From IMG/VR virus record IMGVR_UViG_3300030102_003865, positions 1-46,956 of that record: a stretch of DNA of 46,956 nucleotides; one strand, given 5' to 3'. Source of the DNA: a virus (taxonomy: Duplodnaviria; Caudoviricetes). Below, piece by piece: positions 1 to 18,100 of this stretch (position 1 is the first letter of the stretch; the number at the start of each line of letters is the position of its first letter). The notes beneath the pieces were generated by a model, which saw nothing but the letters and a program-made list of their open reading frames with translations, was not told the origin of the DNA and made no database searches. Made by a program: the position numbers and the translations under genes.

Positions 1-49
1 CTCGAGGCCGTAAAGGGTATTTTTGAAATTGAAAAATCGTTTCGAGCTT

Positions 50-173
50 TCATAACTCGTTGAGTATCAACGCCTATTTATTACACAATAAAAGTAAAAG
101 CTTATGTAACTTTTTAACACCTTATTTAATTACTTAAAAAATATTTTAAGTCATAACTCATTGATACTCAACG
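50..173. repeat. Pair of related palindromic sites (TCATAACTC-N-TTGA-N3-TCAACG)
   Basis: 50-72 TCATAACTCGTTGAGTATCAACG and 151-173 TCATAACTCATTGATACTCAACG; 58-70 is also the exact reverse complement of 161-173. Confidence 0.7.
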
Positions 174-248
174 ATTTATAAACTAAATATATTTTTATGA
201 ACAAATAGGGATAGACATATGAATGAATATGTGCGAATAGTACTTAAG

Positions 249-605
249 GCCCCCTTTCGGGGGGCGGGACTGAGAGAGTTAGTTCCAAGCGGTCGGCCTA
301 CCAAGGGGACCCAGTAAAGGCGAGATCAGTACAGACGCTGCACCTTCTAGCATAGGGCGAGTTTAGCACCTCGGAAATTCGATCTTCAAATCTCAGATAC
401 TTACGGCCAGTAATCGCACCGTGAGTCTGAAACAAGCGGGTTTTAACCCCGCCTGAATGCAACCATCTTAGCCCGTCCAATAGGCGTCACTTAGTGAGAG
501 CAGTGGACTGGATAGCTTAATCACTGACCAGCGGTCAGTTTCAGATAGCCTAGATCACGTGCCACCCGAAAGGTGATGGACCGCTTCGCGAGTTCCTATT
601 CAGGC
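249..605 (+). ncRNA. Candidate large structured ncRNA of unknown family
   Basis: GC-rich island between AT-rich flanks with no credible ORF. Helices: 249-254/260-265, 266-273/279-286, 399-406/419-426, 436-440/448-452, 475-479/504-508, 523-529/533-539, 563-566/572-575; long-range 287-294/579-586; crossing pair 451-458/598-605. Strand inferred from neighbours. Confidence 0.65.
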
Positions 606-649
606 CCGATAGATTGGCAACGATTTATAACACTTAACTTTACTAACTT

Positions 650-709
650 CGAAACCGCTGCTAGGCGGTCCGTATAGATTGAGCCCTATACGCTGATGAG
701 ATAGCTCAA
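650..709 (+). ncRNA. Hammerhead ribozyme, type II, 1-bp stem II with pseudoknot
   Basis: C-GAAA (650-654), stem III CCGC/GCGG, GUC cleavage triplet (cut after 670), stem I CGTATAG/CTATACG, CTGATGA-G (693-700); loop I TTGAGC (679-684) pairs with tail GCTCAA (704-709). Confidence 0.93.
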
Positions 710-710
710 A

Positions 711-741
711 CTTAACTTAACTTACTTAACTTACTTAAATT
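711..741 (+). repeat. CTTAA/CTTA leader repeat upstream of early gene
   Basis: CTTAACTTAACTTACTTAACTTACTTAAATT directly before ATG 742; related tracts at 633-649, 1211-1228 and 3548-3566. Confidence 0.85.
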
Positions 742-924
742 ATGCCTAAATTATTAGCCCTTATTGAAAACGGATTCATCACTGAAACTGATGTAAAACT
801 TGCTGCTACTAACTACGATTTGGACCCTATTATTAATGCCTTTGATGAGGCGGGCCAATTCGTTGAGATAACTACTCTTGAAAGTGAATTGTTAAATCAC
901 TTCGAAACAGTCCGAAACAATTAA
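742..924 (+). CDS. Small acidic hypothetical early protein
   Basis: 60-aa ORF, ATG after repeated leader, downstream of hammerhead 1. Confidence 0.7.
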   Translation: MPKLLALIENGFITETDVKLAATNYDLDPIINAFDEAGQFVEITTLESELLNHFETVRNN

Positions 925-941
925 TCCTTAAATTATTTATT

Positions 942-1151
942 ATGAAACAAATTAAATATTCAGATTTACAAGCTTTAAAACAACGGTGGCAAAAATTAAA
1001 AGACCGCCAAGAATTCGAAAAGGGGTCCTCAATGGCCCGTGGAGTCCCGCCCGTATGCACTGTTTACTGGACTGAAAAGGACTGGGCTAACTGGTTTGAA
1101 AGTAGGAAACCTTTAAAGCCTTTTGATGATTGGCTAAAAGATCAAATCTAA
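942..1151 (+). CDS. Small Trp-rich hypothetical early protein
   Basis: 69-aa ORF with AT-rich leader; stop codon abuts hammerhead 2. Confidence 0.75.
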   Translation: MKQIKYSDLQALKQRWQKLKDRQEFEKGSSMARGVPPVCTVYWTEKDWANWFESRKPLKPFDDWLKDQI

Positions 1152-1153
1152 TT

Positions 1154-1210
1154 CGAAACCGCTTAGGCGGTCTATACGAACTGATCACCGTATACTGATG
1201 AGATAGATCA
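1154..1210 (+). ncRNA. Hammerhead ribozyme, type II, 1-bp stem II with pseudoknot
   Basis: C-GAAA (1154-1158), stem III CCGC/GCGG, GUC (cut after 1172), stem I TATACG/CGTATA, CTGATGA-G (1195-1202); loop TGATC (1182-1186) pairs with GATCA (1206-1210). Confidence 0.93.
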
Positions 1211-1233
1211 CTAACTTAACTTACTTAATTATT

Positions 1234-2466
1234 ATGATTAATAGATTCGCTAATACAGCCAAAATCACTATAGCCCAGTTAAAACTAGGCTTTAAACTAT
1301 GGACCGAAAATTTAAATTTCGTTACCATTGCGGGGCCATCGGGCGATGGCAAGACTGAGATAGCAGCCACTGAACTGCCTGAAGTTTTAGGTATTGAAGA
1401 TCCTCGCCTTCATACCGAAGGCGGAGATGTTTATCTCCTTAATTATACTGACAAAGGACCGCAAGAGGCGGCGGGTTATGGCAAGGTAAATGATGATGGA
1501 ATCCACATGGACTTTACTGCTCCACGTGATCTTCCTACAGTCCACCGCGTAAAGAATACGGGCAACGGTGATATTAACCGCCCGATCCTTTTAATTCTTG
1601 ATGAGTTCAGTCTATACGATTCAACGGTGCAAGGAATGATCAGGCCGTTACAAGCTCGTAAAGGTAAACCAATGTTTGGTACTCATGAGCTTGCCCCAAA
1701 CATCAGGATATTGCTTACTGGTAACCGCATTGAGGACGGTTCACAAAATGCAACGGACCCTGATCAAGCGATCCTGACCCGTGGAAAGTTTTTCATTATC
1801 GACAATAACTTTTCGGACTGGATCAAATGGGCCTCATCAAAAGATTGGGCGGTTCAAAATGATGTTATCCAATATCTAAAATACGTCCAATCTATGGGTG
1901 ATACAGTCCGCACCGCTGAAGGTGAAACCCGCCTGAAGATTGATGAGATATTCAAACCTACAATCCCAATGTCAGGCACTGTAAATCCTACAGCTTGCCC
2001 CCGTCAGTGGGAAAACGTTTGCCGAGAGTTCAAAGCTATTCAGGGTATGAATATAACGGACTCTGAAAAAGAGGACCTCTTAAGAATGTCATTAAATGGC
2101 GCGGTGGGAATCAATGTTACTGAGGATATCATGAGCTTTATTCAATCCGTAAAGGATGCGATTCCTAAATATCAGGATGTACGCAATGACATTAAATCGA
2201 TGGCGGACTTCAGTGGCATTGATGCAATGGCAGTGCTCACTGTTGCTACTCAGCACGTGATTAAGGAAGCTAAGAAAATTAGTGGGGCTGCTGAGCCTGA
2301 GCAAATCCGAAAAGATACAGGGCTCAAAGTTAAAGACGGGTCCTTTGATTGGTTTCTTGATAAGTTCATTGACCCCGCAACCAATCAAGAGATGGCGCGG
2401 TTTGCTGCTGAATCTGCTGATCGCTTTGTGAAATTTGAAGGTAACACCACCAAATATAAATTTTAA
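1234..2466 (+). CDS. MoxR-like AAA+ ATPase
   Basis: Walker A GPSGDGKT, Walker B LLILDE, sensor LLTGN, PRQW motif; vWA gene nearby. Confidence 0.85.
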   Translation: MINRFANTAKITIAQLKLGFKLWTENLNFVTIAGPSGDGKTEIAATELPEVLGIEDPRLHTEGGDVYLLNYTDKGPQEAAGYGKVNDDGIHMDFTAPRDLPTVHRVKNTGNGDINRPILLILDEFSLYDSTVQGMIRPLQARKGKPMFGTHELAPNIRILLTGNRIEDGSQNATDPDQAILTRGKFFIIDNNFSDWIKWASSKDWAVQNDVIQYLKYVQSMGDTVRTAEGETRLKIDEIFKPTIPMSGTVNPTACPRQWENVCREFKAIQGMNITDSEKEDLLRMSLNGAVGINVTEDIMSFIQSVKDAIPKYQDVRNDIKSMADFSGIDAMAVLTVATQHVIKEAKKISGAAEPEQIRKDTGLKVKDGSFDWFLDKFIDPATNQEMARFAAESADRFVKFEGNTTKYKF

Positions 2467-2520
2467 TCTTATCCTTATTAACTTTATTTAAAAATAAATT
2501 AACTAACTATAACTATAAAT

Positions 2521-3459
2521 ATGAAATCATTCGACATTGAAAAAATCGGTAACGGACTTAGCTCTATTGTAAACGTATATGTGAAATTCACATCACCCAA
2601 TCTAAGCAAGAAAAACAGCAAGCTAATCGCTGAACTTGCTGACAAATATGGGACTGATGAGTCCAGTCTATTGGCCTCTGAAAAGTTATTCCTGAGACGT
2701 GATACGATCTTTGGGAAGCTCACATCAGCCACCGTAAAATTTAAAACTGCGATGGCTGCTGATGAAAATAACAAGGGCTTAAAACTCCCTACGAATCCGA
2801 TGACAGGGGCTATCGAAGTACCCGCTGATCAGCTTATGAAAAAGCTAGAGATCCGTGACAAGTTCATCGGGCCTGAAGGTGAGTTCACCATCCTGAAGGA
2901 ACGCCTTCGCGGTATATTCTCAGAGCTCAAAGCTGCCTCTAAAGAGAGGCTCGGCAAGCTCGGTGAGGAGCATGACTGGGACTCATTCACTGAAGCAAAA
3001 TTCGTGGATAAGTATACCCTAACAATGCACTGGGTCCAGTCCACCTACGCGCTAAAAACTAGTCGTGATTTGGCGGTTGCTCAAGAGGTTGCTGATATCG
3101 CGATGGCTAATCAGCATGACGCAATGGTGAATCTTGCCAAGGGGTCCATCAGCAATCTTCTTAGCTCAATGACTGATGAGCTGAAGAAATCCCTATCGCA
3201 AGTCCGTGAGGGCGATCGCTTCGGGCAGCTTGCATTCGATAGGTTCGGACGTGCATACAACGCGCTCAACTCTAAAGCTAAATCCTTTTTTAATAAAGGC
3301 GATATCACCGAGCTTGATGACTTGCTCGATAAGTTCAACGCCCTTGGCAAAATCAAGCGCGATAACATTGAGACCAAGGCTCAGCGTAGTAAGACCGCTG
3401 ACCGTATCGAGTCCGTATTGAGTGAACATGATGACCTCATGGATCAGCTCGGACTTTAA
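2521..3459 (+). CDS. Helical hypothetical protein (possibly DUF3150-like) between ATPase and vWA genes
   Basis: 312-aa charged helical ORF; family guess rests on size and gene context only. Confidence 0.55.
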   Translation: MKSFDIEKIGNGLSSIVNVYVKFTSPNLSKKNSKLIAELADKYGTDESSLLASEKLFLRRDTIFGKLTSATVKFKTAMAADENNKGLKLPTNPMTGAIEVPADQLMKKLEIRDKFIGPEGEFTILKERLRGIFSELKAASKERLGKLGEEHDWDSFTEAKFVDKYTLTMHWVQSTYALKTSRDLAVAQEVADIAMANQHDAMVNLAKGSISNLLSSMTDELKKSLSQVREGDRFGQLAFDRFGRAYNALNSKAKSFFNKGDITELDDLLDKFNALGKIKRDNIETKAQRSKTADRIESVLSEHDDLMDQLGL

Positions 3460-3478
3460 CCTTGAACCCTGAACCCTG
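3458..3478. repeat. AACCCTG heptamer x3 (first copy AACCTTG)
   Basis: aaccttg aaccctg aaccctg; same unit as 7477-7511. Confidence 0.8.
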
Positions 3479-3480
3479 AT

Positions 3481-3506
3481 CACTGCCCCCTAAACTGGGG
3501 GCGGTG
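3481..3506 (+). other. GC-rich intergenic hairpin (mRNA 3' stabiliser or atypical terminator)
   Basis: CACTGCCCCC-TAAACT-GGGGGCGGTG, followed by an A run rather than a U tract. Confidence 0.6.
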
Positions 3507-3514
3507 AAAAAGAT

Positions 3515-3542
3515 TTGACACTAACAAACAATTAACTATAAT
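3515..3542 (+). promoter_or_regulatory. Sigma70-type promoter
   Basis: TTGACA-N16-TATAAT, 29 nt upstream of ATG 3572. Confidence 0.8.
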
Positions 3543-3571
3543 CCTATCCTAACTTAACTAACTTTACTGAC

Positions 3572-5197
3572 ATGGAAATTCTAAATTTAAATCCTAAAAC
3601 TACCGACTGCCCTATGGTCAGGGCTCATTATCAAGTTCTGAAAATTGTTTCAGGCGTACTGAAAACTATTGCGGGGACCGTTCAATTTGTTCTCGATGAT
3701 ACCGTGGAACTAGCAGCGACCGACGGTAATTTTATCTACGTATCGAACCGTTGTTTTGTGATGGCTAAGGACGGCAAGTTTACCGTCAATGGCAAGCGCG
3801 TCAGTGCCATCGCAGCATGGCGGACTATAATTTTACACGAGTATCTGCACATTCTATTGGGTCATTGCACCTACAGAATGAGAGATCTTAACGCGAATCC
3901 TACCATCAAGAATATAGCGATGGATCACGCGGTCAATCTGATGGCTCAGGAAATCGGACGCACCGCGAATTGGGAATTACTATCCGAGCTAGGAATCATG
4001 GGCGAAGTTTTCCCAATATTTGACGGTCTCTTTTGTGATGCTAAATACACTGATCAGGATGCCGAGACAATCCTTAATGACCTTATTAAAAAAGAAGATA
4101 AGGGTACTGACATCAATGAGCCTGAAGGTATTACGGACGGTGATATCAATCCTGATGGTGATCCAACGGACGGTGACGGTGACGGTGATACTGATGCGGA
4201 CGCTGATGGCGATGATCCAACGGACGGGGGCGGTGATGGTGACGCTGATGGTGACGCTGATGGTGACGCTGATGGTGACGCTGATACGGGTGCTGATGGT
4301 GATTCGACGGACGGTGACGCTGATGGTGATTCGACGGACGGTGACGCTGATGGTGATTCGACGGACGGTGACGCTGATGGTGACGCTGATGGTGATTCGA
4401 CGGACGGTGACGCTGATGGTGAGGGCGAAGGTTCAAGCGACTCTGGATCTGGGGCGGGTGGTCAGGTCAGTGACAATGTAAGATATCCTGATCTCGAAGA
4501 GGGTGAGACCCCTGAAGAGGCAGACGCGAAGGCCCGCAAGAAAATCAAAGAGGCCGTAAGGATTCATGAGATGAGCAAGAAAGCGGGGCTCGAAGAGGCT
4601 AAAGACGGACTGACCCGCAAAGTATCTGATGCTTTCACCGCTAAGGCTAAAGTACCGTGGCAAAAAGTCCTCACTAATTGGCTCAAGCGTACTCTCAGCG
4701 GTGGATGGGATAAGCCTCAGAACATCCCAGTCTTAGGAGCAACTGATTTATTCAGCGCGGGCCGTGGATCTAAGAAGCTACCTGAGATCGCGTACATCAT
4801 CGACACTAGCTACTCAATGTCTGATGCTGTAGTGAATGACGGACTCGATCAGCTTGAGAATTTGATGAGGCAGTACAAGCCTAAGAGGACTCACGTTATA
4901 TGCTGCTCAACTGAGGTCGAGCTCAACAAGTCCAGATCCTACTCATCAAATCAGAGGATCGATAGATCAATCATCACGGGCGGTGGTGGAACTAGATTTG
5001 TCCCCGCCTTCGAATATGTGAAACGCTACCATCCGAATGTCGGTGCGGTGGTATACATCACGGACGGTGAATGCGATCAGCGTAATCAAATACCTCAGCA
5101 CTTGTTACCTGCCAAGTTGCTATGGGTTGTTTACGGTGGCATGAAACCCGAACGCTTTAAGTTAGGTAAAGTAGTAGAAGCTCCACCAGTGAGCTAG
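3572..5197 (+). CDS. HExxH metallopeptidase-like + vWA domain protein (DUF2201-type) with Asp/Gly repeat linker
   Basis: ATDG and HEYLH at the N-terminus; MIDAS IIDTSYS, GGGGT and YITDG at the C-terminus. Confidence 0.85.
   Translation: MEILNLNPKTTDCPMVRAHYQVLKIVSGVLKTIAGTVQFVLDDTVELAATDGNFIYVSNRCFVMAKDGKFTVNGKRVSAIAAWRTIILHEYLHILLGHCTYRMRDLNANPTIKNIAMDHAVNLMAQEIGRTANWELLSELGIMGEVFPIFDGLFCDAKYTDQDAETILNDLIKKEDKGTDINEPEGITDGDINPDGDPTDGDGDGDTDADADGDDPTDGGGDGDADGDADGDADGDADTGADGDSTDGDADGDSTDGDADGDSTDGDADGDADGDSTDGDADGEGEGSSDSGSGAGGQVSDNVRYPDLEEGETPEEADAKARKKIKEAVRIHEMSKKAGLEEAKDGLTRKVSDAFTAKAKVPWQKVLTNWLKRTLSGGWDKPQNIPVLGATDLFSAGRGSKKLPEIAYIIDTSYSMSDAVVNDGLDQLENLMRQYKPKRTHVICCSTEVELNKSRSYSSNQRIDRSIITGGGGTRFVPAFEYVKRYHPNVGAVVYITDGECDQRNQIPQHLLPAKLLWVVYGGMKPERFKLGKVVEAPPVS
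4135..4420 (+). repeat. In-frame tandem repeats encoding DGDA / DGDADGDST
   Basis: 12-bp GACGCTGATGGT and 27-bp GACGGTGACGCTGATGGTGATTCGACG units. Confidence 0.9.
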
Positions 5198-5205
5198 AAA
5201 TAACA

Positions 5206-5242
5206 GCCCCCTCTTCATGGAGGGGAGGGGGCTAAATCTTTT
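5206..5242 (+). terminator. Possible intrinsic terminator or stabilising hairpin
   Basis: AGCCCCCTCTTC...GGGGAGGGGGCT just after stop 5197; weak, displaced U tract. Confidence 0.5.
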
Positions 5243-5262
5243 AACAAAAAATAAAATTAGAT

Positions 5263-5493
5263 ATGAGTAAATTAAATAAAGTAACGGAAGCCAATCAAGT
5301 CCCGTGGCCTCGCCCCGATTGGACGGATTTAAACGATTGGTATTTAGATCATGCCCCTGTTGAGTTTAATGTAATTAAATACTTACCTTTATCCAACGCG
5401 TACGACGTTCAGCTAGTCGCGTGGCATAACTCTGGGAGATCTATCGAAGGATTTGAGTCTGCTCTATGGACTGAGAGAGAAGCTTTAAGTTAA
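5263..5493 (+). CDS. Hypothetical protein
   Basis: 76-aa ORF flanked by duplicated leader TTAACA(n)TAAAATTAGATATG. Confidence 0.7.
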   Translation: MSKLNKVTEANQVPWPRPDWTDLNDWYLDHAPVEFNVIKYLPLSNAYDVQLVAWHNSGRSIEGFESALWTEREALS

Positions 5494-5510
5494 CAAAAAT
5501 AAAATTAGAT

Positions 5511-5771
5511 ATGCTTACAATATTCTTCATCTTAATCTGGATCTTATTAACGATCCTCGTCTTACGATTCTTCTATGTATCGAACCCACCTCAGAAGGTT
5601 AACACCATTTACGTGGGGTTAGATCACAACGAATGGAACGTCATACTTAAATGCATTGACCAGTGCGTAAAATCTGGGCTTCGGTCTGAGGCAGATGAGG
5701 AGGAACGCATAGCCGTGGGTCGTGAGATCGCGGACCAAGTTTGTAACCATATTGAATCTGAACTTAAATAA
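5511..5771 (+). CDS. Small membrane-anchored hypothetical protein
   Basis: N-terminal hydrophobic run LTIFFILIWILLTILVL. Confidence 0.7.
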   Translation: MLTIFFILIWILLTILVLRFFYVSNPPQKVNTIYVGLDHNEWNVILKCIDQCVKSGLRSEADEEERIAVGREIADQVCNHIESELK

Positions 5772-5774
5772 TTT

Positions 5775-6005
5775 ATGAAAAAAATAATTAACGACTTCAT
5801 TGATAGGACTCTGTTCATATCTCTTTGTTCATTACTTTTTATCCTTTTCCTGCTGATTGCTGCAATAGCGGGAGGCTACGTGGCGGACGCGAAGACCGCT
5901 GTAATGAGGATCAGTGGATTCGAGATGTTCCTTTGTCTCGTGATCCTTCCCGCAATCACCGCATCAATCTGGATGCTTGTCGATAAACTTAACCAAACCA
6001 TTTAA
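5775..6005 (+). CDS. Small two-TM membrane protein
   Basis: Two hydrophobic segments; tightly packed in the operon. Confidence 0.7.
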   Translation: MKKIINDFIDRTLFISLCSLLFILFLLIAAIAGGYVADAKTAVMRISGFEMFLCLVILPAITASIWMLVDKLNQTI

Positions 6006-6017
6006 CTAAACTTAATC

Positions 6018-7388
6018 ATGAATAAAGCATTATCTAGAAACGGAATGCATTTCAATCCCGACAAAGAACCTTACCCTTTTGCTGAGGGGTTCAAGCCCGT
6101 AGGAATAACGGACTCTAAGCTCAAGAAACACCTTCTCGATGACATCTCTATGGCATTTGTCCGTGCTGTTTACCACTCAAAAGGGCATGGGAATGCTAAT
6201 AGCTACTGTAAAGAATTCAAAAAGGTAACCCCTTCAAGAGTTTATAATTCTTTTTTTCCTAAAAGATTTAAGAACGTACCTGAATTTAGTGACCCGCGCT
6301 TGTTTGGAGTGGCTAACTTATTTAGTTATCTTGAGCACGGTTTTGATGATGAGGACGATGGCAAGGCGACGGCAGCATGGAGGGATATTCATATAAACCT
6401 ATTGGGTTTCAACTACCCCGTTTATTTTCTTGATGAGACTACAGAACAAATGATTATTGATTCTAAGTTAGACCCCACTTTAACCTTAGCAGACATCGAG
6501 TTTGCGTTGCCGAGCTTCTTAATTTGTTTACCAAAAAAAGGTTTAGATTCGGTGTCATCTATAAAAGAAAAGGGAGGATCTGATTACATAGCTACCATAG
6601 GGGTAGCTAGATCTTTTGAGATGTATAACTCGGTCACTGATGATTACACTTCAAACCCCGAACAAGAGTGGGAATACATGGGAGGATGTAACTCTCATAA
6701 TATGAACAAGATGATAGTCGAAAGCGGGGACGGACCTTGGAGAGAGATAGGTGACGCAATGCTAGAACACTGGGCTAACATGGATATCAATGATGAGTCT
6801 GGAAAAATAAATACATCTGTTTTTAGAGAGCCTGATATATCAAACAAAATGTGGAGGTCAGGTCAGTATAAAATACAGCCCGTCCTTAACGTGGGTTGCG
6901 TTAGTGGAACTACGCTCAAGCTTCCCGCACGTTTTCGCATGGATGATCCAGTCCCCGTTGCTGAATTGTTAGAACAAAATAGAGCTCTAGCCAACGAACT
7001 CATCGATGCTGATGGTCATGTGCAAAGGTTTACACCAAACTGGAAAGGTCCTAAGTTCGATGAGATGCTTGAGTTCACCCTTAAAATTATGGCTTTCATG
7101 GCTGCTAAACCTGAAGAGGTCAGCACTATAGCCGAGCAAACTCAACCCGCTAAAGTTCGTAGAGGTTACACTCTCCGTGAATCTGAATGGAGCCCTAACA
7201 TCATCGGCAAAAGGTACGGAGCTACTCTTCGTAGGCAAGGGTACACTTCAGATGACGGGGACAAGAATAAGAACAGACCGCACTGGAGGAGAGCGCACCA
7301 AAGAAGGCAGAGGTACGGTAAACATTCTGCCAAAGAGAAATTGATATGGGTCGATGCTGTCTTCGTGAACGACCCTGAAAAAGATTAA
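6018..7388 (+). CDS. Phage protein of unknown function with C-terminal PHxRRxHxR motif
   Basis: 456 aa, ends RPHWRRAHQRRQRYG...IWVDAVFVN. Confidence 0.75.
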   Translation: MNKALSRNGMHFNPDKEPYPFAEGFKPVGITDSKLKKHLLDDISMAFVRAVYHSKGHGNANSYCKEFKKVTPSRVYNSFFPKRFKNVPEFSDPRLFGVANLFSYLEHGFDDEDDGKATAAWRDIHINLLGFNYPVYFLDETTEQMIIDSKLDPTLTLADIEFALPSFLICLPKKGLDSVSSIKEKGGSDYIATIGVARSFEMYNSVTDDYTSNPEQEWEYMGGCNSHNMNKMIVESGDGPWREIGDAMLEHWANMDINDESGKINTSVFREPDISNKMWRSGQYKIQPVLNVGCVSGTTLKLPARFRMDDPVPVAELLEQNRALANELIDADGHVQRFTPNWKGPKFDEMLEFTLKIMAFMAAKPEEVSTIAEQTQPAKVRRGYTLRESEWSPNIIGKRYGATLRRQGYTSDDGDKNKNRPHWRRAHQRRQRYGKHSAKEKLIWVDAVFVNDPEKD

Positions 7389-7395
7389 TAGAATT

Positions 7396-7467
7396 GGGCA
7401 TTGCGTCGGAGCTTTGGTACTCTGGTTATTTTCATACGCCCGTCAGGTAAACGCATAAAAGCCTGAC
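7396..7467 (+). ncRNA. Candidate pseudoknotted RNA element
   Basis: GGGC/GCCC (7396-7399/7438-7441), CGGAG/CTCTG, GTCAGGT/GCCTGAC; TGCGT (7402-7406) is complementary to loop ACGCA (7451-7455). Confidence 0.5.
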
Positions 7468-7476
7468 ACTAAATTT

Positions 7477-7511
7477 AACCCTGAACCCTGAACCCTGAAC
7501 CCTGAACCCTG
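7477..7511. repeat. AACCCTG heptamer x5
   Basis: Five perfect tandem copies 10 nt upstream of ATG 7522. Confidence 0.95.
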
Positions 7512-7521
7512 ATTCATTGTA

Positions 7522-7770
7522 ATGCCAAGTAATCACATATCAAACGAACCTTATCACGAATGGCTACGTGATAAGATCAAACGCGAAACCTTAGCCGAAC
7601 AAATAAAAGAACTGAATATGAAATCTCAAGTAGATGTAGTAGAAGAAGTCTCTCAGTTGAGAGAAGCACGTAACGAGTTAGCAGCAATGTTAGCTCACGT
7701 ATTGGGGTCCAAAGAAAACTTGAAGAAGTTTTTGGAGGACTGGAATAAAAAGAAATTGACTAATCAATAA
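7522..7770 (+). CDS. Small coiled-coil hypothetical protein
   Basis: 82-aa ORF with heptad-like pattern. Confidence 0.65.
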   Translation: MPSNHISNEPYHEWLRDKIKRETLAEQIKELNMKSQVDVVEEVSQLREARNELAAMLAHVLGSKENLKKFLEDWNKKKLTNQ

Positions 7771-7783
7771 TACATTATATATT
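7756..7783 (+). promoter_or_regulatory. Putative sigma70-type promoter
   Basis: TTGACT-N16-TATATT upstream of ATG 7826. Confidence 0.55.
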
Positions 7784-7825
7784 AATTATAACTTAACCCT
7801 AAATTTATTTATTAAAAAAATAATT

Positions 7826-8287
7826 ATGACACCCTTAACTAAAGCAGTACATCGGGTGGTAGTGATCGAAGATCAGGAGTATATAGCTTCTCTCGTCCCT
7901 GCCACGGAAAATCAACCCGCAGCCTTCACACTTCGCAAGAAGAAACATAGATCCTTGTCATCTTGGATCGCTATGGATGATTCACTTGTGGATCATGCCG
8001 AAGATGAAGAAGCTGAAGCTGAATACGAACCCATAACCCAAGCGGAGAAATCCGCACAACACGTAGCTAAACAAGTAGGCGTTCAAATGGCTCTTGGCAC
8101 TGCTAGAGAGAATGATCCAATCCATCCGAAGGACTTGGAGATGTGGTCCAAATATTCGTACCCAAAATTTTTGGATGCGTGGGCTCGATATAAAACAGCG
8201 TTAGCTTTTCACAAAGATCCTGAGCTTATCAAGATTGTTTGGGGGAAGGGTAACGAGATCGTAGTCTATTGTCCTGAGTTTGCATAA
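7826..8287 (+). CDS. Hypothetical protein
   Basis: 153-aa ORF with AT-rich leader. Confidence 0.75.
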   Translation: MTPLTKAVHRVVVIEDQEYIASLVPATENQPAAFTLRKKKHRSLSSWIAMDDSLVDHAEDEEAEAEYEPITQAEKSAQHVAKQVGVQMALGTARENDPIHPKDLEMWSKYSYPKFLDAWARYKTALAFHKDPELIKIVWGKGNEIVVYCPEFA

Positions 8288-8495
8288 GATGAGGATCATC
8301 AGACAAGTGTTTCCACAAGGACATCCGATCATTGTGGATGCACAACTGGATGATGACAACGGGGTCGTTCAAGATTCCGTTGTTATTTATCCAATACTCC
8401 CTGACGGAATAATAGGGCAGCCCATCTTCAGTAAAGAGGACCCTGCCACATCCATACTAGACGAAATTATTAACGACCTACTAAACGAAAATTAA
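8280..8495 (+). CDS. Hypothetical protein (true start may be ATG 8289)
   Basis: Fills the gap between neighbours; its stop abuts the next ATG. Confidence 0.65.
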   Translation: MHKMRIIRQVFPQGHPIIVDAQLDDDNGVVQDSVVIYPILPDGIIGQPIFSKEDPATSILDEIINDLLNEN

Positions 8496-8822
8496 ATGCA
8501 GTTAACTTACAAAGTATCACCGCAATCTATCGCAAAAGCGATCAGTAAAGTCTCTGGATTCTCAGTTTATGAACTGAAGAACGAAGGGCATTCACATACA
8601 CTCGCCCAGTGGAGACACTTGGGAATGTACTTGGCCCGTGAATCGGGAATGACGTACGTTGAAGCGGGTGAAGTATTCAATCGCCACTTCTCAACAGCAC
8701 TGACCTCGCATAGGAAAGTCAAGAAATCCTTGGACGATCCTCAGATAGCAAATGCTTTAGGGCAAATTAAAAACTTTTTGAATAAAGAAAATAAAGACGA
8801 TGGAAATCAAGAGATTCTATAA
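8496..8822 (+). CDS. Stand-alone DnaA C-terminal (domain IV)-like HTH protein
   Basis: WRHLGMYLARESGMTYVEAGEVFNRHFSTALTSHRKV resembles the DnaA RQIAMYL...IG..F..RDHTTV....K signature. Confidence 0.75.
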   Translation: MQLTYKVSPQSIAKAISKVSGFSVYELKNEGHSHTLAQWRHLGMYLARESGMTYVEAGEVFNRHFSTALTSHRKVKKSLDDPQIANALGQIKNFLNKENKDDGNQEIL

Positions 8823-9006
8823 GACAGACAGAGGCCCATACAGCAGCATCTTTTTAATGCACACTGTAGATGCAATGCCTCAGTACAAAGTATATGCAGT
8901 GTCTCCTGAGAACCCTACCAAAGTTATCTACGAAGGTAAGAACAGGAAAGAAGCAAACGATAGCTTTGAGAAACTAGTTTCGAAGTACACTTTACAAGCT
9001 CACTAA
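8800..9006 (+). CDS. Hypothetical protein
   Basis: 68-aa ORF, last early CDS. Confidence 0.65.
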   Translation: MEIKRFYKTDRGPYSSIFLMHTVDAMPQYKVYAVSPENPTKVIYEGKNRKEANDSFEKLVSKYTLQAH

Positions 9007-9008
9007 AC

Positions 9009-9036
9009 TTGACGGATATATTTTGCTTGGTATACT
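9009..9036 (+). promoter_or_regulatory. Sigma70-type promoter with extended -10
   Basis: TTGACG-N16-TATACT with TGn before the -10; no CDS between it and the terminator. Confidence 0.7.
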
Positions 9037-9042
9037 TAACTT

Positions 9043-9135
9043 ACTTGGCGTAGTCAATGTCCCAACCCATTGGTTAAGTTAGGTTAAGTTAAGGTCCCCC
9101 TCCTTCTATATCACGTAGAGGGAGGGGGTTTTTTT
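9043..9135 (+). ncRNA. Candidate ~95-nt sRNA antisense to early-gene leader repeats
   Basis: Bounded by promoter and terminator; 9072-9094 GGTTAAGTTAGGTTAAGTTAAGG is complementary to CTTAACTTAAC/CCTAACTTAAC leaders; start site estimated. Confidence 0.6.
9096..9135 (+). terminator. Rho-independent terminator at the convergence of early and late units
   Basis: 13-bp stem CCCCCTCCTTCTA/TAGAGGGAGGGGG followed by T7. Confidence 0.9.
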
Positions 9136-9139
9136 GTGT

Positions 9140-12100
9140 TTACGGATCTACCGATAAGAACCTTGGGTACTTATTCAACTCAGCTTGGAAGTCTCGGAGC
9201 CTTTGGATATGAGTCTCCCCTTTTCTAACCATACGTTCGATGAATGGCATAGGTAAGGATGGTCTATCCATGAGTCCTTTGGCTAGTAGCAACTGGACCC
9301 TCCTCTTACTCATCCCTCTTTGAAGACCGATCTTATAGATCTCTTCTTTGGATAAGCCTTGCCTCTCAAAAGATCTGAACACCCGATTCAGGTGAGCGTT
9401 GACTCTTCGTCTTCCCTCTATTTCTTTTTTTGCTAAAGAAGTTATCTCGGACTTGGTCATCACATCATCAGTCAACAGTCTAAACTTATTTGAGTTGATC
9501 CTATCGAACTCACCTTTCCTCTTCGACACGAAGTTAGATAACCGAACATCGAACTCAATCGGATAAGTCGTTGCGGGTTTGAACTGACCAATGATATTTG
9601 ATATAACTTCAGGAGCCTTAGTGATATCAAACCCATCTTTGAATATCGCCTTATCCTCTATCAGTTTGGTAAGAGTTGGAGGAGTTAATGCCTCATCCAA
9701 TACGTAGCCGAGAGACTTCGTAAATTTCTCATGGAGTAAATCATTCTCCTCGTAGATAGGTTCTTCTTTTTTCGGATCGAAGTTTGACTTCGCATTTAAG
9801 AAAGCCCTCATGAATATCTGATCGTCAAAGAATTCACCTAACGTTCCCTTCACTAAACTCTCTACCGTCTTGGAAGTATTACCGTGAACGAGATGTTCCA
9901 TCGCCCTTAGTGAAGGGTCAGTTAACATCGAGTACGGGTTAATGAAAGTTAAGGAGAAGTTCCTTCTCTCTTTAGTAAGAGGATTTGTATAGTATATGAG
10001 TGATTGATTCTGCATATACGGTGGCAACGTATCACGAAGAGCTTCATCGTCATCGTAGAATATTCCCTGAAGAAGTCTCGTAGTGATGGGAACTATGACT
10101 GAAGATACTCCAGTAACAAACCCGATACCTGCTAGTCTTCTACGTCCACGTTTTCTAATGACGGGGTTGCTATCTTTAGATTCTTTTAAAGCTAGGTTCC
10201 ACGTATTGAAATATGTTCTGATAACCTCACCTTTAAATCGAAGGAAAGGTGAGAACATAACTCCGAAGGTATGTCCCTGAAGTCCAGTGATAATAGGAGG
10301 AGCTTGAGAATATGTTTGAGAAGTCATGACAACTTTCTCGGCTGCTAATCTCTTTAGTTGATAATCAGTTTTGGTTGCATAAAAATCTTGCTTGCCATCC
10401 TTTCTCGATGCTTCTCTCGCATCGATAAGGTATTTAAGTTCATGCTCAAACAAGGCTATCTTGTAGAACGCATCAACAATAGCTGAAAGTTCTTTAGCCT
10501 TGCCCCATGTTTTCTCATTAGCTTTCTGAGCTAACTCTTTTCCTTTGCGAGAGATGCTCTTCCCCTCTTCGTTCTCTAGCCTTGAAAGATTTTTTTCAAA
10601 ATCATTTAAGACTTTTTCTGGAGAGGTCTGCCCACTGAGTAGCTCTTCAATTAGCTTGGGCCTAATCTCATTACCGATAACATCGAGAGCTATCAGTTCT
10701 GTATAGTAATCGTTTGCAGTTTCTTGACGTATTCCCCTTCGGTCTAATTCAGTGATTAAACTCTTGGTCATACTACCCCACTTAACGAATCCATTAGCGG
10801 GACCAAAGTAAAAAGCGTTTGATATTACGTTCCTTACATAGAAGCCAATGTTACCTAAAGTCTTAGACCCTAGAGATAGACCTGTTATTCTGGCTATCAT
10901 CTTAAAGGAACCACTCGCTATCTTTTCTGCATCGTTCGCTGACTCTTGACTAGGCGGATTTAATACGCTCATCAAGCCATCAACCATTTCAGCGGGAGCA
11001 AAGAGTTGTACGTTCTTTGGTTCACCATCTACCTCGACCTCGAAGTTTCTAAATGGGTCATAAGCTTCTGCTCCTCCTGCTTTAATTTGTTTATACCTGC
11101 TTCCACCATACTCATCTATGTTTTCTAATCTCTTTTTCTTGAGCTCATCCTTCGTAAGTATCCACTCGTTTCCTTTCCTGCGTCCGATCTCTAATAAGTT
11201 TTTCATGAACGCTTGGTTCGATGCCATCATACCAACGCTGAGGTAAGTCCTTAAAAGATTCTTGAACCCTGCACCCTCGTCAGTTTCCTCTCCAAGCAGA
11301 GCCCTGATTGATTCATCAATATCTCTTTTCTTTTTCAACTGATTTATCAGAGGACTAGCAAAGGATTCAACAGCTTCAGGTCCTGCTATCAAGTTACTTG
11401 ATTCCTTATCTTTATAACTATGGAGGAATGAAAGCATCATTGACCTACCTAAGTCTTTGTTCTCAGTAAGTTCTTTCTCAGCTAGTGCGGTAGCTTCGGA
11501 CTCCTCTTTACCATCTTTTATAAAGGCTTTAATACGTGCTTGTTTGTAGGTATCTGCAAAGTACTTAGCAGCATTGTCTCTCACGGTGCTGAACTTAGGA
11601 TCTTTGGTAACTTTATCCAACCACCCTGCTTCATTGAACATCTTATATGATCGGGTTATGTATATTCCTAAGTTACTATCTATCGTAGCACTTAGATCTA
11701 CATCCACATTGTAGAGTTCTTTAAGTTTAATCGAAAGAGAATCGACGGTATCACGTAATGCTTTAAGTTCATTAACGAATTCAGGGGATACCTTTTCAAG
11801 TTGAGTTAGTGCAGCGTCCTTTTTCTTTCTAATGATTTCTCTTTGAACGTCTTGCTGTTTGCGGATGTCGTTCTTGTATTTGTTTGTAGCATCCTCAAGA
11901 AGTGTTTTCTTTTCCTCTTCAGTTATCTCTTTACGTTTAGCCTTCTCGTTTATGTCCGCTTTTCTGGACTTGTGTTGAAGATTAATTGCATCTCTCACAT
12001 CATCAGGTATCGACACAACTTTCGAAGAACCTGTAGCTTCAGATATCAATTCGTACGGTATACTAAATCCTTTATCAATAAAGTCTTTATCAAGTATCTT

Positions 12101-15100
12101 CCTTAACTTCGTTGCTCTTAGGTTAACATCATTCTGGACAGCGCGGTTGAATGCTTCTCGTTGTTCGAACATACGTCTGACTCGGATATCAAGAGACCCA
12201 GTCATGGCGACTTTAAATTTACGCCACCAAGAATCCTTGCGTTTCTCTGAATCATATACACCGTCCTCGTAAACAGGAGCTTCTAACATTTTCTCTAACC
12301 TATCGACCGTCACTTCCTCTGTAGAGTAGGTGTATCCTGATATCTTTTTATCAGTAGCACCGAGCTCAGAGTACAAGAACGAATCCATTGTTGGATCAAA
12401 CCTATCAGTCAAAGGAATTATATTACCATCCTCATCGTAAGTTACAGGATCGGATAACTTTATTTGTTCGGGTGTGAGTACGACTGTTATGGTAGCATCT
12501 TCCCCACTGTTTGTTACAAAATCAGCAGTCAAAGCATCTATACCAGTAACTTCTTTGAGAGCTTGGTGATAATGTTTAGCGTATATACCACTACCGTTCA
12601 TGGCTCCAAGCTGTTCGGCTATTGTTTCATTTTGAACAGGATCAGAAAGCATTTCAACAGCGGCCTCTATGCTCCCAAAGTTGGCTACAAAAGTATCATT
12701 GATACTTGCTTCAGGATCTTCTTTTAGCATATCTTGAAACTCCAACTCGTTTACTCTTTCAAGTACGGGTCTCAGTTCCTCTGCCGAAAGAGGGGCGGAG
12801 TCATGAGGGCGTGGGTTGTTTACTTTCAGATACGCAGAAAGAATTCTTCCTCTAAACTTACCTACGCGAGTATATCCCTCCGCAACTGTCCGTGATTTTG
12901 TGAAATAAAAACCTGTACCGTACGCAAAACCTGTACCGAATCCTATCTTACGGTAAGAGAATGCATCGAAATCAGCGGGGGTTCCGTGGAACAGAGGACC
13001 AACAGTGTACCCTGTAGACTCCGCTGCTCGCTTCACGAACTGCTGAAGTACTTCTTTATTTCCTTCAGGATCTTGAGCTAACTCCATGTACCTATCGTTG
13101 GTAGCACCGAGTTCAGATTTTAACAGGTCTTCTTTGACAGGCTCAGTCGCAATTAACAAATTACTTTTCTTAATTACTTTACCAAAAAACTCTTTAATCT
13201 CAGGGACATAGTCGGCTGCTTTCTTATGGTTCTGCCACCCTTTAGTAGTGGTTTTCCCAACGCCATCCCTGTTACCTTCATGAATTAAAAAGTAAGCTTT
13301 GCCCTCTGGTTTTATAGCATTAGCTGCTTGCCTGATTACAAGCCCCCTGCTGTCTTCCTCCTGTATAACATTCAATACGTTATTAACAGTAGCCGTGTCT
13401 GATTGACCGTCTCTTATCTCTTCAACTACTCTCTTATTGTGTACTTCTCCTCTGTTAAATGGATCATATATAAAGTTAGCAACTCCTAAAGTAGCTAGTT
13501 TTTCTGTACCATTATCAAAACTTCCTCCTCCTATATCAGCATTCTTAGTTCCCTCTTCCCATTCAATTATTCCTTTATCTGTTAAGGAGCCAAAGGTAGC
13601 GGGTAGTTTATCTCTATTGATTGAGGTATCAGCACTAGATATTTGCTGACCTTCTGGGTAAGTCCATATATTTTCAGTAGCACCAAGGCCACTATGTAAA
13701 AGTCTTGGACCCGTATCAAACCTGTTACTTAACGGAATGATATCTCCAAAGTCATCGCGCGTTACCTCCGCAGATTTAATTTGTTCAGGTGAAAATACTA
13801 CCCAAACATCAGAAGCTTCATAATGGATAGCGTCGTAACCACTTATCTTTGAAACCAACTTAGTTGCTGCTGCTCTTCGATTTGTTTGGTCTGGAGATAT
13901 ACGGATAACGTCTGCACCTTGCCTCGCGAATGTCTCGCTACGAGTCGTATCAAAATCTTCAGCCGACTTAATAAGGTCCTCTTCAATCTTACGGAAATTA
14001 GAATTTTCAGGATAAGTTTTAACAAGTTCTCTTACTTGTTGATCAAACTTTAAGCCATCTACTAAGTAAACTATAGGTTGCTTTTCGGTAGCATAACCCG
14101 TTTCATATAAAAACTGATCGATTTCTATTTCCGATAAGTTGTACTCACGCGATAAACCTTCAGCAAATTCTTTAAAAAACTCTTGTTTGTCTTGGATTGC
14201 CGCATCAGTTCCGCTACTGTAATCTTCTATGAGTCTGTAAGATCCTTCAGTATGGCTTACTCTTGTTCTAAAAACTTTGTCCGCTTTTAGAAATGTTTGA
14301 TAAACTCTACCAACATCTCCCTGCGCGTAGTTAGCTGCTACATTATAGTTGCCTGTAAAATAAAACCCATGACCACCGACACTTCTCATTATAAAATTAC
14401 TGTCGAAAGTTTTTAAGTCTTTGTTAGTAGATCCGTGGAAAACAATAACAGGTGCTCCCTCTACTACATGACCCTTCTGTCGGGCTTCAGTTTCCAATAG
14501 CTGTGTTAGTGAAAGGTCGCGCTCTTTAGAAGGATCGGCTGCATCCATGTACGCTTGTCCTCTGACAGCTTTTATCTTGTCTCGATAAGTTCCCTCTCTT
14601 TGCATCTTTAGATGCTCTTTAGAATTTACTACAACAGAGTTAGTTGGGTTGGGGTAGGCGACTGAGTCTCTTGGGTTGCCTGTTAGGTTACCTATGGTGA
14701 CATGATAAATTCTGTCCTTATCAGGAGAAGGCCCGCCTATTATATTCTTTTCTACAAAATTATTTAAGACTTCTTGTTCAACAACTCTACGTACCAATGA
14801 CTGTCTAAGCGTACCGTCAGGTTGTATTTGAGTAGATATTTCAGGAGCGTGAAACGTGAGGTTAGGGAACACTGCAACAGGGCTCTGTCCAGTAAGACGG
14901 AAAGCCTCTCCTAAGATATCAGTTTCTGCTACCTCGTCAGTAAACTCTTTACTTATCAAAGTAATATGTATGTCTTCTTCTTTTAGAGGAATGAAATTAC
15001 TTTTCCCAAACTTAAAGTTTTGTTGTTCCTGTTGAACGAGTTCCGAAAGTTTTTCTGACTTCAACATATAGATGCCAGTCTTAACAACCCTGCCCTTTAT

Positions 15101-18100
15101 AGGGTCCTCGTTGTTATTAAGGGCTTCAATATCAAAAGGACCTAAATCAGATAGCCTTAGTTCCTGCCCTCCTCTATCAATCTTGCGATTGTTGCCCATC
15201 ATATCAGAGAACTCTTGAGCAAGAGGAATCAATTCCTCTATGGGAAGATCTACTACATTGACATTTGCCATAGACTCTGGATTGATCAACATCATTTGAC
15301 CGTATCGATGATTGCCATCAAGAATAAATCCGTCAGAGCTCATCACTGAAAAAGGTTTATCGCTTAAACCTCCGACAGAGTCTTGCATATTGAAGTGCTT
15401 TTGCATAGCAAACCAAACTGTTTTAGGGAAAAACAATTCAGTCTGATAGGGTTTCATAGTAGCTACACGAACACTCTTTTGCCTCACGCTTACTGGTCGC
15501 TCTAACTTTTCACTCAAGAATCTACCAAACTCTTCTACTTGTTGAGGTTGAACGATTGGCATTTCTTCTCTCGATACCTCTCCTATCTGCTCTCTAGTCT
15601 CTAATAAAATAGCTTTAAGATTATTATAGTTCGATTCGAATTCTGGTATCTCATCAAGGAATGATCGAGCAACTCCCATCTCATCAAATTTACCCTGAGC
15701 CCTGATCCCTGCATCCTTAGCCGATGTATCAAGAATCCTGTCTGTCTCTGGTCCTGCCTCTATTGGCTTTCCAGTTATCCCCAAACTTGTAAACAGTACC
15801 TCTGTTCTCATTGGGTCGAAGCGGAGATCAAGAGGAACGACTTGTGTTTCATAGCGGAGACCTCCATCTTCTCTATCTTCTACAGCATTCAAGGACTGTT
15901 TAAAAGTAACTGTCTCAGCAGACTTTATATTATAAGGTTCAAATATAGCAAGGCTTCTACCATACTTACCCGATGTATCTTCTCTTTCGTAGTGTCCGTC
16001 ATACCCTAATCTTTTAAGAGCGTTACGTACTGAAAGATTTATCTTACGAGGATCGTCATCGTAAGCTAAGTTAGTAACTTCGTAATTAGAGAAGAACGAA
16101 TACTGTCCCTGTTTCAGCTTCTCTCTAAACATGCTCTCATCAAACTCCCCCTCAGATAGATTTTTAAATTCATCTTCTTGCTTTAGCTTTGAGATAAATT
16201 CATCAACCTGAGAAGGATCTTCATGATCAAATAATTTAAGGTCCTTCTTAATATACCAACGATGTAAGATTATATCTGAAAGAGACTCTTGTTGAGCTAT
16301 GGCTGAGATACTTTGTGCATCTTTAGGGGTCTCTGAAACAAAAGCAGACACGGTCCCGAACCTAGTTTGAGGAGTATCTATATTATACTTGGTACTTCCG
16401 TGATAGTACACGGTACTAGTATCATAGCCATTAGCCTCTGCTGCCTTTTTTACTAAAGCATTTAAGTCAGCTACAGACTTTTTATTATCAGCCACCCAAG
16501 CGTCCAGTATTTGGACTTTAGCTCTTGTGTTATCTTCTTCATTTAAAATACTAACATCTAATACTTTCTCTACCTCCTTAGAGTTCAATAAATCCTCAAG
16601 ATTATTGTTACCTGAGTCACCTGTTAAGATAAGCTTACGGAATTGTTTAGTATCAGCAGCTAATTCTGATTGAAGTATATCAGGGTCTTCGAGTTCGGGT
16701 GTGTCTTCAGGGAACACCTCACCTAAAGTTGTGTTTTGTAGTCCTGTTATATAATCATCAGGACTATTTGGATCAAACACAAGATTCCCCGCAGTGAATC
16801 GGTCCCTCCCCATTAAAACATTTATTTCCTCAACCAAATTAGATATTGCCATATCCATTTCAGGCGTGGTAAGTCCCTTCTTCTTTAGTTTGAGTAAGCG
16901 TGAGACCATTCTTCTTAAATACTCAAGTACTATCTGAAGTTTAGTAGGGTCTCCTGTCCAAAATTCATAGTTCGCCTCTGAAGTAGTCCCCGTCATTCTA
17001 TCCTGAGCATACATACGGAGCTTTTCCTCTATAAGAATCTCTTTAGTTTGCTGAACGGTAGTCTCTTCTTCTGATTGTAAGGCTGCTTTTAGTTGCTCGT
17101 TCCGTGCAGGGTTATCTGGAGTGTACTCATCAACAATAGTCTCAAACTCTGCATCAGTAGTTTCATTAATTAACTTGTTTAATTGTTTTTTAGATATAGA
17201 TCTGTACGAAGCAACGTGAGCTACTTCTTCTCCCATAATAGAATTAAGTATCCGACGAATTACAGATTCTGATTTACCTTTCTTAATTAAATTAGCTACC
17301 GAGTTCTGGTTAAGGAATACATCACCCGTCCTAGCACGAGCAGCAGCAAGTCCTCCAGTCGTGTTAGTAATATTTAAGCTAAGTCCGTTACGCCTAACAA
17401 ACATCCCCATGCGATTTATCAATCGCGTTAAAATATTTGATTCATCTACTGTCAGAGTATCATCTGATTCTACTTTTGAGGTATCCGTTTCATCTTGTCC
17501 CGCTTCTTGATTATCAAGTCTCCTCTTATTTGTAGGACTAATCTCAGTTCTAAGTACATCAGGTTCACCTGTAGCTCTTGGAGACCATACCTCTTCGACA
17601 CCTTGCTCAACAGAACCAACACTTTTGGCTATCTTCTGCAACTTGCGGAGGTCATCGATTGTACGACTTGTTATATCCGAAACACTTTCTGTTGCGGTAG
17701 GCACATCAGGAGTTGCTTGTTCTCCGAAAGCATAGTGAGTTGTAGTATGTGCTTCGGCAGAACTCTTTCTTATCGCATTGATAACAGCGATTGTTTTTGG
17801 AGTGCTGAATGACTGTCCTAAAGTTGCTTCAACTCTTGCCCGTACGTCTTCAAGTAAAGCTAAGTCTTTAGTTATGTCTCCTTCTTTGCTAACCGAATCG
17901 GTAGTACCACTAATAAGTCTAAGTAGAGTATGTAAAGGACGACTGTCTTTGCCCCTTAAAGATTTTTTATATAAATCTAAGAAGGCTTGGCCCATTGTCT
18001 TTTCTCTAGTTAGAGTGGTTTTACTATCTAGATCTATAGAGCGTAGCGTAGGACCTTGATCGAGTATCAAGCCTAGTACTTCGTTTCCTGACATTACACC

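Follow-up and report, generated by a model that had tools for sequence, protein, structure and literature searches.

A conserved non-coding unit complementary to early start regions closes the early gene block of a phage

In phages that use host-type promoters, the turning down of early genes is usually explained by proteins. A non-coding stretch at 9009-9135 of virus record IMGVR_UViG_3300030102_003865 raises the question of whether a small RNA could contribute. The window analyzed here is the whole of that record (46,956 nt; completeness 78%), and the phage sequence occurs in DNA runs of marine and aquatic origin. Fourteen plus-strand genes form a block (742-9006) that we infer to be early from its position and content; it converges on a minus-strand gene for a 4,491-aa protein (9140-22615), and the stretch lies between the last early gene and this convergent gene. 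Beyond the latter are genes for terminase, helicase, exonuclease, a family A polymerase, primase, amidase and tail proteins. The phage group looks lytic, because tyrosine integrase was found in none of five records (the window plus four relatives; completeness of 90% or more in four of the five) by a search that was positive in all 14 control genomes. A search for a T7-type RNA polymerase, run without a positive control, found none. Distant relatives occur in five bacterial bins, two of them Opitutia/Opitutae, and region 7500-10500 had no DNA match in an annotated phage collection.

A preliminary description had read the stretch as an independently promoted RNA that acts as a multi-target early shut-off switch. 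Its layout and its specificity for early starts stand; the seed, however, proves to be half hidden, and several relatives have no recognizable promoter. The stretch is a real, conserved non-coding unit, and within its own lineage its complementarity is highly specific to early start regions. From sequence comparison we put a probability of roughly 0.55 on the reading that it encodes a ~93-nt trans-acting antisense sRNA, which would dampen early translation through a CUUAACUUAAC motif shared by the start regions of about five mRNAs.

Several other features of this genome deserve mention in their own right. The 4,491-aa protein has two ART-PolyVal stretches, and among close relatives both its ends are conserved and its middle is highly variable. 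An AAA ATPase, a 312-aa protein and a DUF2201 metallopeptidase/vWA protein with an acidic repeat form a conserved module (1234-5197, plus strand, and relatives) that is inverted in G003 and absent from G007. The left end (244-600, plus strand) is G+C-rich and ORF-poor with many hairpins (no Rfam match; fold z -1.55), and a 22-nt inverted repeat (49-70/161-182; 91%) with internal hairpins may be a terminal or promoter structure. Short tandem heptamer repeats occur in early intergenic regions at 3460-3480 and 5' of ORF 7522, and also in L090 and L060. A strong C-rich/G-rich hairpin without a T run (5205-5233, plus strand) lies just before a leader and may be a processing or stabilizing stem; similar hairpins stand at the start of early blocks in L077 and L068.

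Anatomy of the unit

Re-examination bore out the promoter-like site, the terminator, the complement of 9072-9094 with its four matches and the cis copy at 9035-9043 (Table 1). The promoter had been called strong, a rating that the scan does not bear out: the site at 9009-9036 scores 10/12, and promoter-like sites are no more frequent than in shuffles (19, where 19.6 would be expected by chance). Its 16-nt spacing recurs at the early promoters at 3515 (12/12) and 7756, and a TAACTT motif follows it as it follows those two.

Table 1. Features of the unit, its neighborhood and its predicted targets
Feature	Position	Strand	Basis
Sigma-70-like promoter: TTGACG (9009-9014), 16 nt, TATACT (9031-9036), TG before -10	9009-9036	+	consensus match, predicted
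Predicted ~93-nt small RNA: hairpin, single-stranded linker, terminator; predicted start A9043	9043-9135	+	fold z -5.05
5' arm (anti-seed), pairing with the tract via five G-U pairs and one mismatch	9043-9059	+	fold
Variable hairpin loop	9060-9067	+	indels in relatives
Tract complementary to early start regions; 9085-9095 a free toehold	9070-9095	+	sequence match, fold
Intrinsic terminator, 14-bp stem (9096-9128) and T7	9096-9135	+	sequence
Leader-like CTTAACTTA, in read-through RNA only; stretches the hairpin across the entire tract	9035-9043	+	fold
9-codon mini-ORF behind leader-like tract; not conserved	9041-9070	-	sequence
Type II hammerhead-like ribozyme, loop-I/3'-tail pseudoknot TTGAGC/GCTCAA, predicted cut after C670	647-708	+	core motif scan
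Type II hammerhead-like ribozyme, predicted cut after C1172	1151-1212	+	Rfam RF02276
AAA ATPase gene	1234-2466	+	PHROG 1297
DUF2201 metallopeptidase/vWA gene	3572-5197	+	PF13203, PF09967
Last two early genes: DnaA C-terminal HTH protein, 68-aa protein	8496-9006	+	PF08299
4,491-aa polyvalent protein, ART-PolyVal domains; convergent, marks the junction	9140-22615	-	PF18760
Target 742: start region of ORF 742-924, directly behind hammerhead-like element	711-731	+	net -12.8 kcal/mol, predicted
Target AAA: start region of AAA ATPase gene 1234-2466	1211-1231	+	net -6.8, predicted
Target vWA: start region of DUF2201 metallopeptidase/vWA gene 3572-5197	3548-3573	+	net -10.1, predicted
Target 6018: start region of ORF 6018-7388	5986-6009	+	11-nt perfect match, net -8.1, predicted
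Target 7826: 28-37 nt 5' of ORF 7826-8287; weakest	7789-7798	+	10-nt match, predicted

An RNA starting at A9043 is predicted to form a 16-bp hairpin (9043-9084) that covers 12 of the 23 tract bases and leaves 9085-9095 single-stranded; its fold z score stems mostly from the terminator. The preliminary description had a small hairpin followed by the seed, and that order is retained, but the hairpin is larger and only 9085-9095 is free. Its proposal that the upstream copy at 9035-9043 sequesters the seed in read-through RNA agrees with the fold model, in which the predicted open probability of 9085-9094 is 0.13 for an RNA starting at 9043 and 0.0000 for read-through RNA. The latter would form a 24-pair hairpin (9035-9093) at -22.4, against -24.2 for the best duplex with a target; pairing of the tract with the RNA's own 5' arm reaches -12.5.

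The near equality of the read-through hairpin and the best trans duplex lends weight to an unlikely but serious alternative, in which the unit is a cis-acting 3'-end hairpin of the early transcript, concerned with its processing, its stability or its termination between the convergent genes, and the leader match is a by-product of an inverted promoter-leader duplication. RNase III-type processing of phage transcripts is familiar from T7. The 5' arm begins with the leader-like motif, so the tract could be an inverted copy, and the TAACTT shared with the early promoters fits such a duplication. Within the unit itself, however, the G-U pairs and the mismatch all lie in the part covered by the promoter-derived arm, whereas the tract is a perfect leader complement.

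Region 8400-9800 had no match in three metatranscriptome contig sets, which says nothing on expression. Overall, the unit has, at the level of consensus matches, the promoter or processing site, the terminator and the lack of a conserved coding frame that mark a trans-encoded sRNA and, within this lineage, an accessible conserved seed with beyond-chance complementarity to distant targets.

Complementarity to early start regions

Matches to the reverse complement of 9072-9094 lie at 711-721, 1211-1220, 3548-3558 and 7789-7798. These are the only four sense-strand matches of at least 10 nt to the 23-mer in 47 kb, and all are within 40 nt of an early AUG; a further 11-nt match lies on the non-coding strand (5157-5167). 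A fifth site, AACTTAACCAA at 5986-5996 before ORF 6018, had been overlooked. With start regions defined as -40 to +15 and genes called automatically, a perfect complement of at least 10 nt occurs in 5 of the 14 early start regions of the window versus 0 of 24 others, consistent with the earlier claim that multiple early leaders match the seed; the other nine early start regions have no 10-nt site. None of 2,000 dinucleotide shuffles and none of 3,539 same-length genomic windows reached five early sites. At ORF 742, pairing runs beyond the 11-nt core as first described, to a 21-bp duplex (711-731) with one bulge. The same pattern holds for the unit of G004 (complement of at least 10 nt in 6/17 early versus 0/29 other start regions; 3/2,000 shuffles) and that of L090 (3/14 early start regions; 1/2,000 shuffles). 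Independently of the unit, AACTTAA emerged as the top enriched 7-mer of the early leaders, and the unit contains its complement (rank 1/511, matched by 53 of 1,000 shuffles). In a genome-wide ranking by match length the unit comes first in the window's lineage, hereafter lineage A, and stands at rank 295 in G001, off the list in G002 and at 34 in L019, phages of the sister lineage B.

The interaction scan that the preliminary description had proposed gives a concordant picture. When hybridization and opening energies are summed, the top five among 38 start regions are those of 742, 3572, 6018, 1234 and 7826 (-12.8 to -6.4 kcal/mol), with 742 the best; all five are early (early versus other, p = 0.002). 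Against shuffles, the accessibility-inclusive energy of the unit is marginal (5/100 in the window, 7/100 in L090), because shuffles retain the U/G content and lose the self-hairpin. A raw duplex scan without accessibility ranks many coding or antisense stretches close to the leaders in score, and energy alone is therefore not specific.

Two of the predicted sites, 742 and AAA, sit directly behind hammerhead-like elements. Both elements show the features of RF02276 (the core GAAA, NUH and CUGAUGA, three stems and the loop-I/3'-tail pseudoknot) and are candidates: that at 1151-1212 scores 31.3 bits (E 0.0035) against RF02276, under the 37-bit gathering score, and that at 647-708 was not scored by Rfam. 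In core, stems and pseudoknot they are thus like the family, with scores below its threshold or absent. Three copies stand directly 5' of early leaders in G004, and the same core motif scan found none in G001-G003. Hammerheads in multiple copies flanking phage genes are already known, as the accessible text of PMC3088659 describes; the placement of such putative ribozymes directly 5' of predicted sRNA sites is new. Cleavage would leave the 742 and AAA leaders near a new 5' end.

The repeated CTTAACTTAAC could also be a DNA operator for a phage protein, with 9072-9094 as one more site. One candidate is the DnaA C-terminal HTH protein, whose gene, two genes upstream, is conserved along with the unit, and DNA sites function in both orientations. 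We nevertheless consider this reading very improbable: the sites lie 3-37 nt before AUG codons, two of them behind ribozyme-like elements rather than at promoters, the unit has G-U pairs typical of RNA along with compensatory changes, and the lineage B match spans the start codon.

Conservation and divergence among relatives

In five loci at ~90% protein identity (two of them on the same contig), 9043-9059 and 9068-9095 are unchanged, where the 511 nt of coding sequence upstream carry 11-20 changes; for so short a stretch this is weak evidence. Indels are confined to the hairpin loop, with a 5-nt deletion in L002 and L004 and an insertion of about 24 letters in one contig of run X15; within the terminator, T9109C turns a U-G pair into C-G. 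The loop deletion also bears on the suggestion, already raised as an alternative in the preliminary description, that the tract is a minus-strand leader for a 9-codon peptide or the remnant of a lost gene. On that strand the tract does resemble a typical leader, with ATG and nine codons behind it. The deletion cuts this frame to three codons and leaves the tract intact, and lineage B has no frame open in all members, which makes this reading scarcely credible.

Farther away, L090-L092 (55% protein identity) have TTGACT-16-TATGGT, a free linker and a terminator, together with a hairpin whose 5' arm differs. They retain the core GTTAAGTTAA, and their early leaders share the motif. The exchange of the arm around a kept core argues against a purely cis-acting hairpin, as does the L090 tract being, by prediction, partly open even in read-through RNA (0.09).

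The wider family was collected by scans with the C-terminus of the large protein, keeping the best 80 of 86 and the best 80 of 108 matches, which gave 154 usable junctions in 64 clusters. Judged by eye, a hairpin-plus-terminator unit is present in 10 of the 64 clusters (26 loci). The other 54 of these clusters, from the same best 80 of 86 and best 80 of 108, have no unit at the junction, a further point against a cis-acting 3' end of the early transcript. Nine of the 10 unit-bearing clusters share one branch of a quick tree (SH-aLRT 81), with L060 apart; a later scan added the unit-bearing junction of L212. In unit-bearing relatives the orthologues of the DnaA-type HTH gene and the 68-aa gene adjoin the unit on its upstream side. 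Promoter-like sites occur at the equivalent junction in L090, L094 and L212, and clusters L017, L018, L046, L080 and L102 have no recognizable promoter at the unit. L093 and L102 carry the unit and have only two leaders each on their contigs. Separately, the junction of L014 (11512-11583, minus strand) holds a tRNA gene and other non-coding sequence in place of the unit.

In lineage B, an alignment of 10 sequences shows a stem of 10 bp in which 98% of cells are paired and 4 of the 10 pairs have compensatory changes, a result reached by 0 of 500 shuffles although the structure was picked from those very sequences. The loop-side GGTATTCC is invariant; that the invariant bases lie in the loop rather than the stem is not what a cis-acting hairpin would lead one to expect. 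The invariant loop GGUAUUCC complements GAAUACC at the vWA (-7 to -1) and AAA (+2 to +8) starts. GAATACC is found at both starts in most B phages; the vWA start of L094 is without it, and the AAA start of L018 has lost it. A covariance model built from lineage B alone places the window's unit among five matches in 1.5 Mb (24.7 bits, E 0.042), a score that is partly generic, because two other matches (L039/L077 and L068) were rejected as unrelated promoter-hairpin elements that start early blocks and are not seed-bearing homologues. A pattern scan for lineage B gave 12 matches, nine in known phages and three by chance.

Seed/leader co-variation, which the preliminary description had proposed as a check, is visible between the two lineages in the pairing energies. 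For the vWA and AAA genes only, the energies of A units run from -5.3 to -14.6 on A starts and from -0.7 to -6.3 on B starts, and those of B units lie between -7.5 and -10.4 on most B starts and between 0 and -5.9 on A starts; the exceptions to B-on-B pairing are L018 AAA, G001 vWA and L094 vWA. Over all early genes the means (unit/leader) are A/A -10.0, A/B -4.1, B/B -7.9 and B/A -5.8, with no own-lineage preference for the L060 unit. By energy, B units are beaten by 0/60, 0/40 and 0/60 shuffles. Other tests did not bear out co-variation. Exact k-mer counts in lineage B are not significant, nor are its de novo 7-mers (ranks 21-58; 242-542 of 1,000 shuffles), and early versus other start regions in this lineage give p 0.07-0.08. 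The L060 unit has a 13/14 match to three leaders, yet fails the energy test (31/60 shuffles). The L212 junction has TTGACG-16-TAGTAT, a hairpin and a terminator, and no AAA gene; its loop complements CAACGA, present in 3 of 10 leaders (rank 5/399), but in a prospective test it pairs worse than most shuffles by energy (92/100 better). This lack of energy support for trans pairing in L212, together with the long and nearly perfect stems of L212 and L093, speaks for the cis-acting hairpin. In a test devised post hoc on exposed 14-mers, each of three other lineages has a match to a 6-mer enriched in its own leaders (p 0.004-0.13 per genome; combined 0.002-0.012 for three lineages excluding the window's). 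Overall, the comparisons lend moderate support to seed/leader co-variation, resting on one good contrast and two weak ones.

The same matrix is relevant to where such an RNA would act. It could work mainly on host start regions, as a host shut-off device, or on the early mRNAs of a related phage, in superinfection exclusion. The units of one lineage pair equally well with the leaders of sister phages, the leader motif resembles a general enhancer that host genes may share (T7 epsilon, UUAACUUUAA, in the accessible text of PMC9590205), and the accessible portion of the review PMC12197685 describes phage RNAs that act on host genes or in exclusion. Set against this, the motif is limited to phage early starts (0/24 and 0/29 others) and differs between lineages, and by eye it was not visible in the S10-operon leaders of two Opitutae-type bins, although the true host may differ. 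Such a primary role seems to us distinctly unlikely.

Several lineage B features call for separate notice. A conserved peptide (13-25 codons, L046 cluster) was considered and set aside as the general explanation, because third positions are frozen and other members have stops or a frameshift: no frame is open throughout, with stops in L016 and L017 and a frameshift in L018. A 20-25-codon ORF overlaps the hairpin in L019, L028, L057, L044 and L046, where a dual-function RNA is possible; in three loci it begins at a TAATG overlap with the upstream stop. In L017, L019, L044, L046 and L057 a palindrome, TTAACAACTGAGTTGTTAA or variants, lies 5' of many early genes and perhaps replaces the hammerheads as a processing or operator site.

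Predicted mode of action and known systems

Under the trans-acting reading that we favor, host RNA polymerase would transcribe the ~93-nt RNA from the unit's own promoter, starting at 9043. The free linker 9085-9095 would nucleate on CUUAACUUA in target leaders, and the better-matching target would then displace the G-U-weakened 5' arm. Inspected by eye, the early leaders are A/U-rich and have no Shine-Dalgarno sequence, and the A/U-rich motif is therefore probably a ribosome-loading element, whose covering would block initiation; the likeness to the T7 epsilon enhancer, as far as the accessible text of PMC9590205 describes it, fits such a role. Read-through early mRNA would be inactive, with 9035-9043 locking the entire tract. 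Because of this lock and the position at the far end of the block, output would depend on the unit's own promoter and lag behind the early mRNAs. As infection proceeds, build-up of the RNA would act as delayed negative feedback on early proteins, above all the AAA-ATPase/vWA module.

Rfam returned no relevant family on the unit, and the 10 relative loci gave only the tRNA in L014. The closest precedent in function may be c4 of P1/P7 (immI, RF01695), likewise a small RNA that a phage encodes and that pairs with an mRNA of the same phage to repress it, according to the accessible text of PMC8198154. In contrast to c4, which guards lysogeny and blocks one operon (icd-ant), the unit is predicted to address about five separate early start regions. 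RF01695 had no match in window 1-10000 (E up to 5) or in the 10 relative loci (gathering score), and a separate C4 family search, without a positive control, found nothing. Nor is the setting that of immI: the neighbors are the DnaA-type HTH gene and the polyvalent protein gene, and no tyrosine integrase was found in the five records.

OppZ and CarZ of Vibrio cholerae, as described in the accessible text of PMC7398697, likewise come from the 3' end of a gene block and pair with start regions of that block in negative feedback, and the unit too ends the block that it would regulate. They differ in being bacterial, RNase E-processed and Hfq-bound, with one site in their own operon, and have no sequence relation to the unit, which has an apparent promoter of its own, is locked in read-through RNA by prediction and would reach many sites through a shared motif. 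As far as the fold models go, the promoter-like site and the locked fold of read-through RNA favor independent transcription over RNase E release. Lineage B may be different. A visible promoter is often absent there and the seed is predicted to be open in read-through RNA (0.09-0.18), so the RNA may act from the mRNA 3' end; by analogy, lineage B may work like OppZ/CarZ.

Among phage RNAs, sar (P22), OOP and aQ (lambda), PAK_P4as15, VpdS and PreS likewise exert post-transcriptional control of phage development (PMC12197685, accessible portion). In that portion of the review, the RNAs directed at phage genes are mostly cis-antisense, serve a single gene and belong to temperate phages, whereas the trans-acting ones largely address host mRNAs or Hfq, and none is described as matching a motif repeated across early leaders. 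The accessible portion of this 2025 review, its table of 38 uncharacterized RNAs aside, describes no multi-target early-leader RNA of a lytic phage, and the literature searched, mostly non-subscription, yielded none either.

One may go further and imagine a timing system made of RNA only, in which ribozymes cut the early transcript into units, one sRNA from the distal end of the block, active only when its own promoter drives it, reads lineage-specific start-region tags and silences all tagged units, tag and seed change together, and superinfection exclusion becomes kin-specific; we hold this extension to be doubtful. If the trans-acting reading is true, one sRNA that reads a shared early-start tag would be a protein-free and fast-evolving route to early shut-down. 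The design of a toehold with a weakened arm, locked in read-through RNA, would moreover serve as a natural template for synthetic riboregulators.
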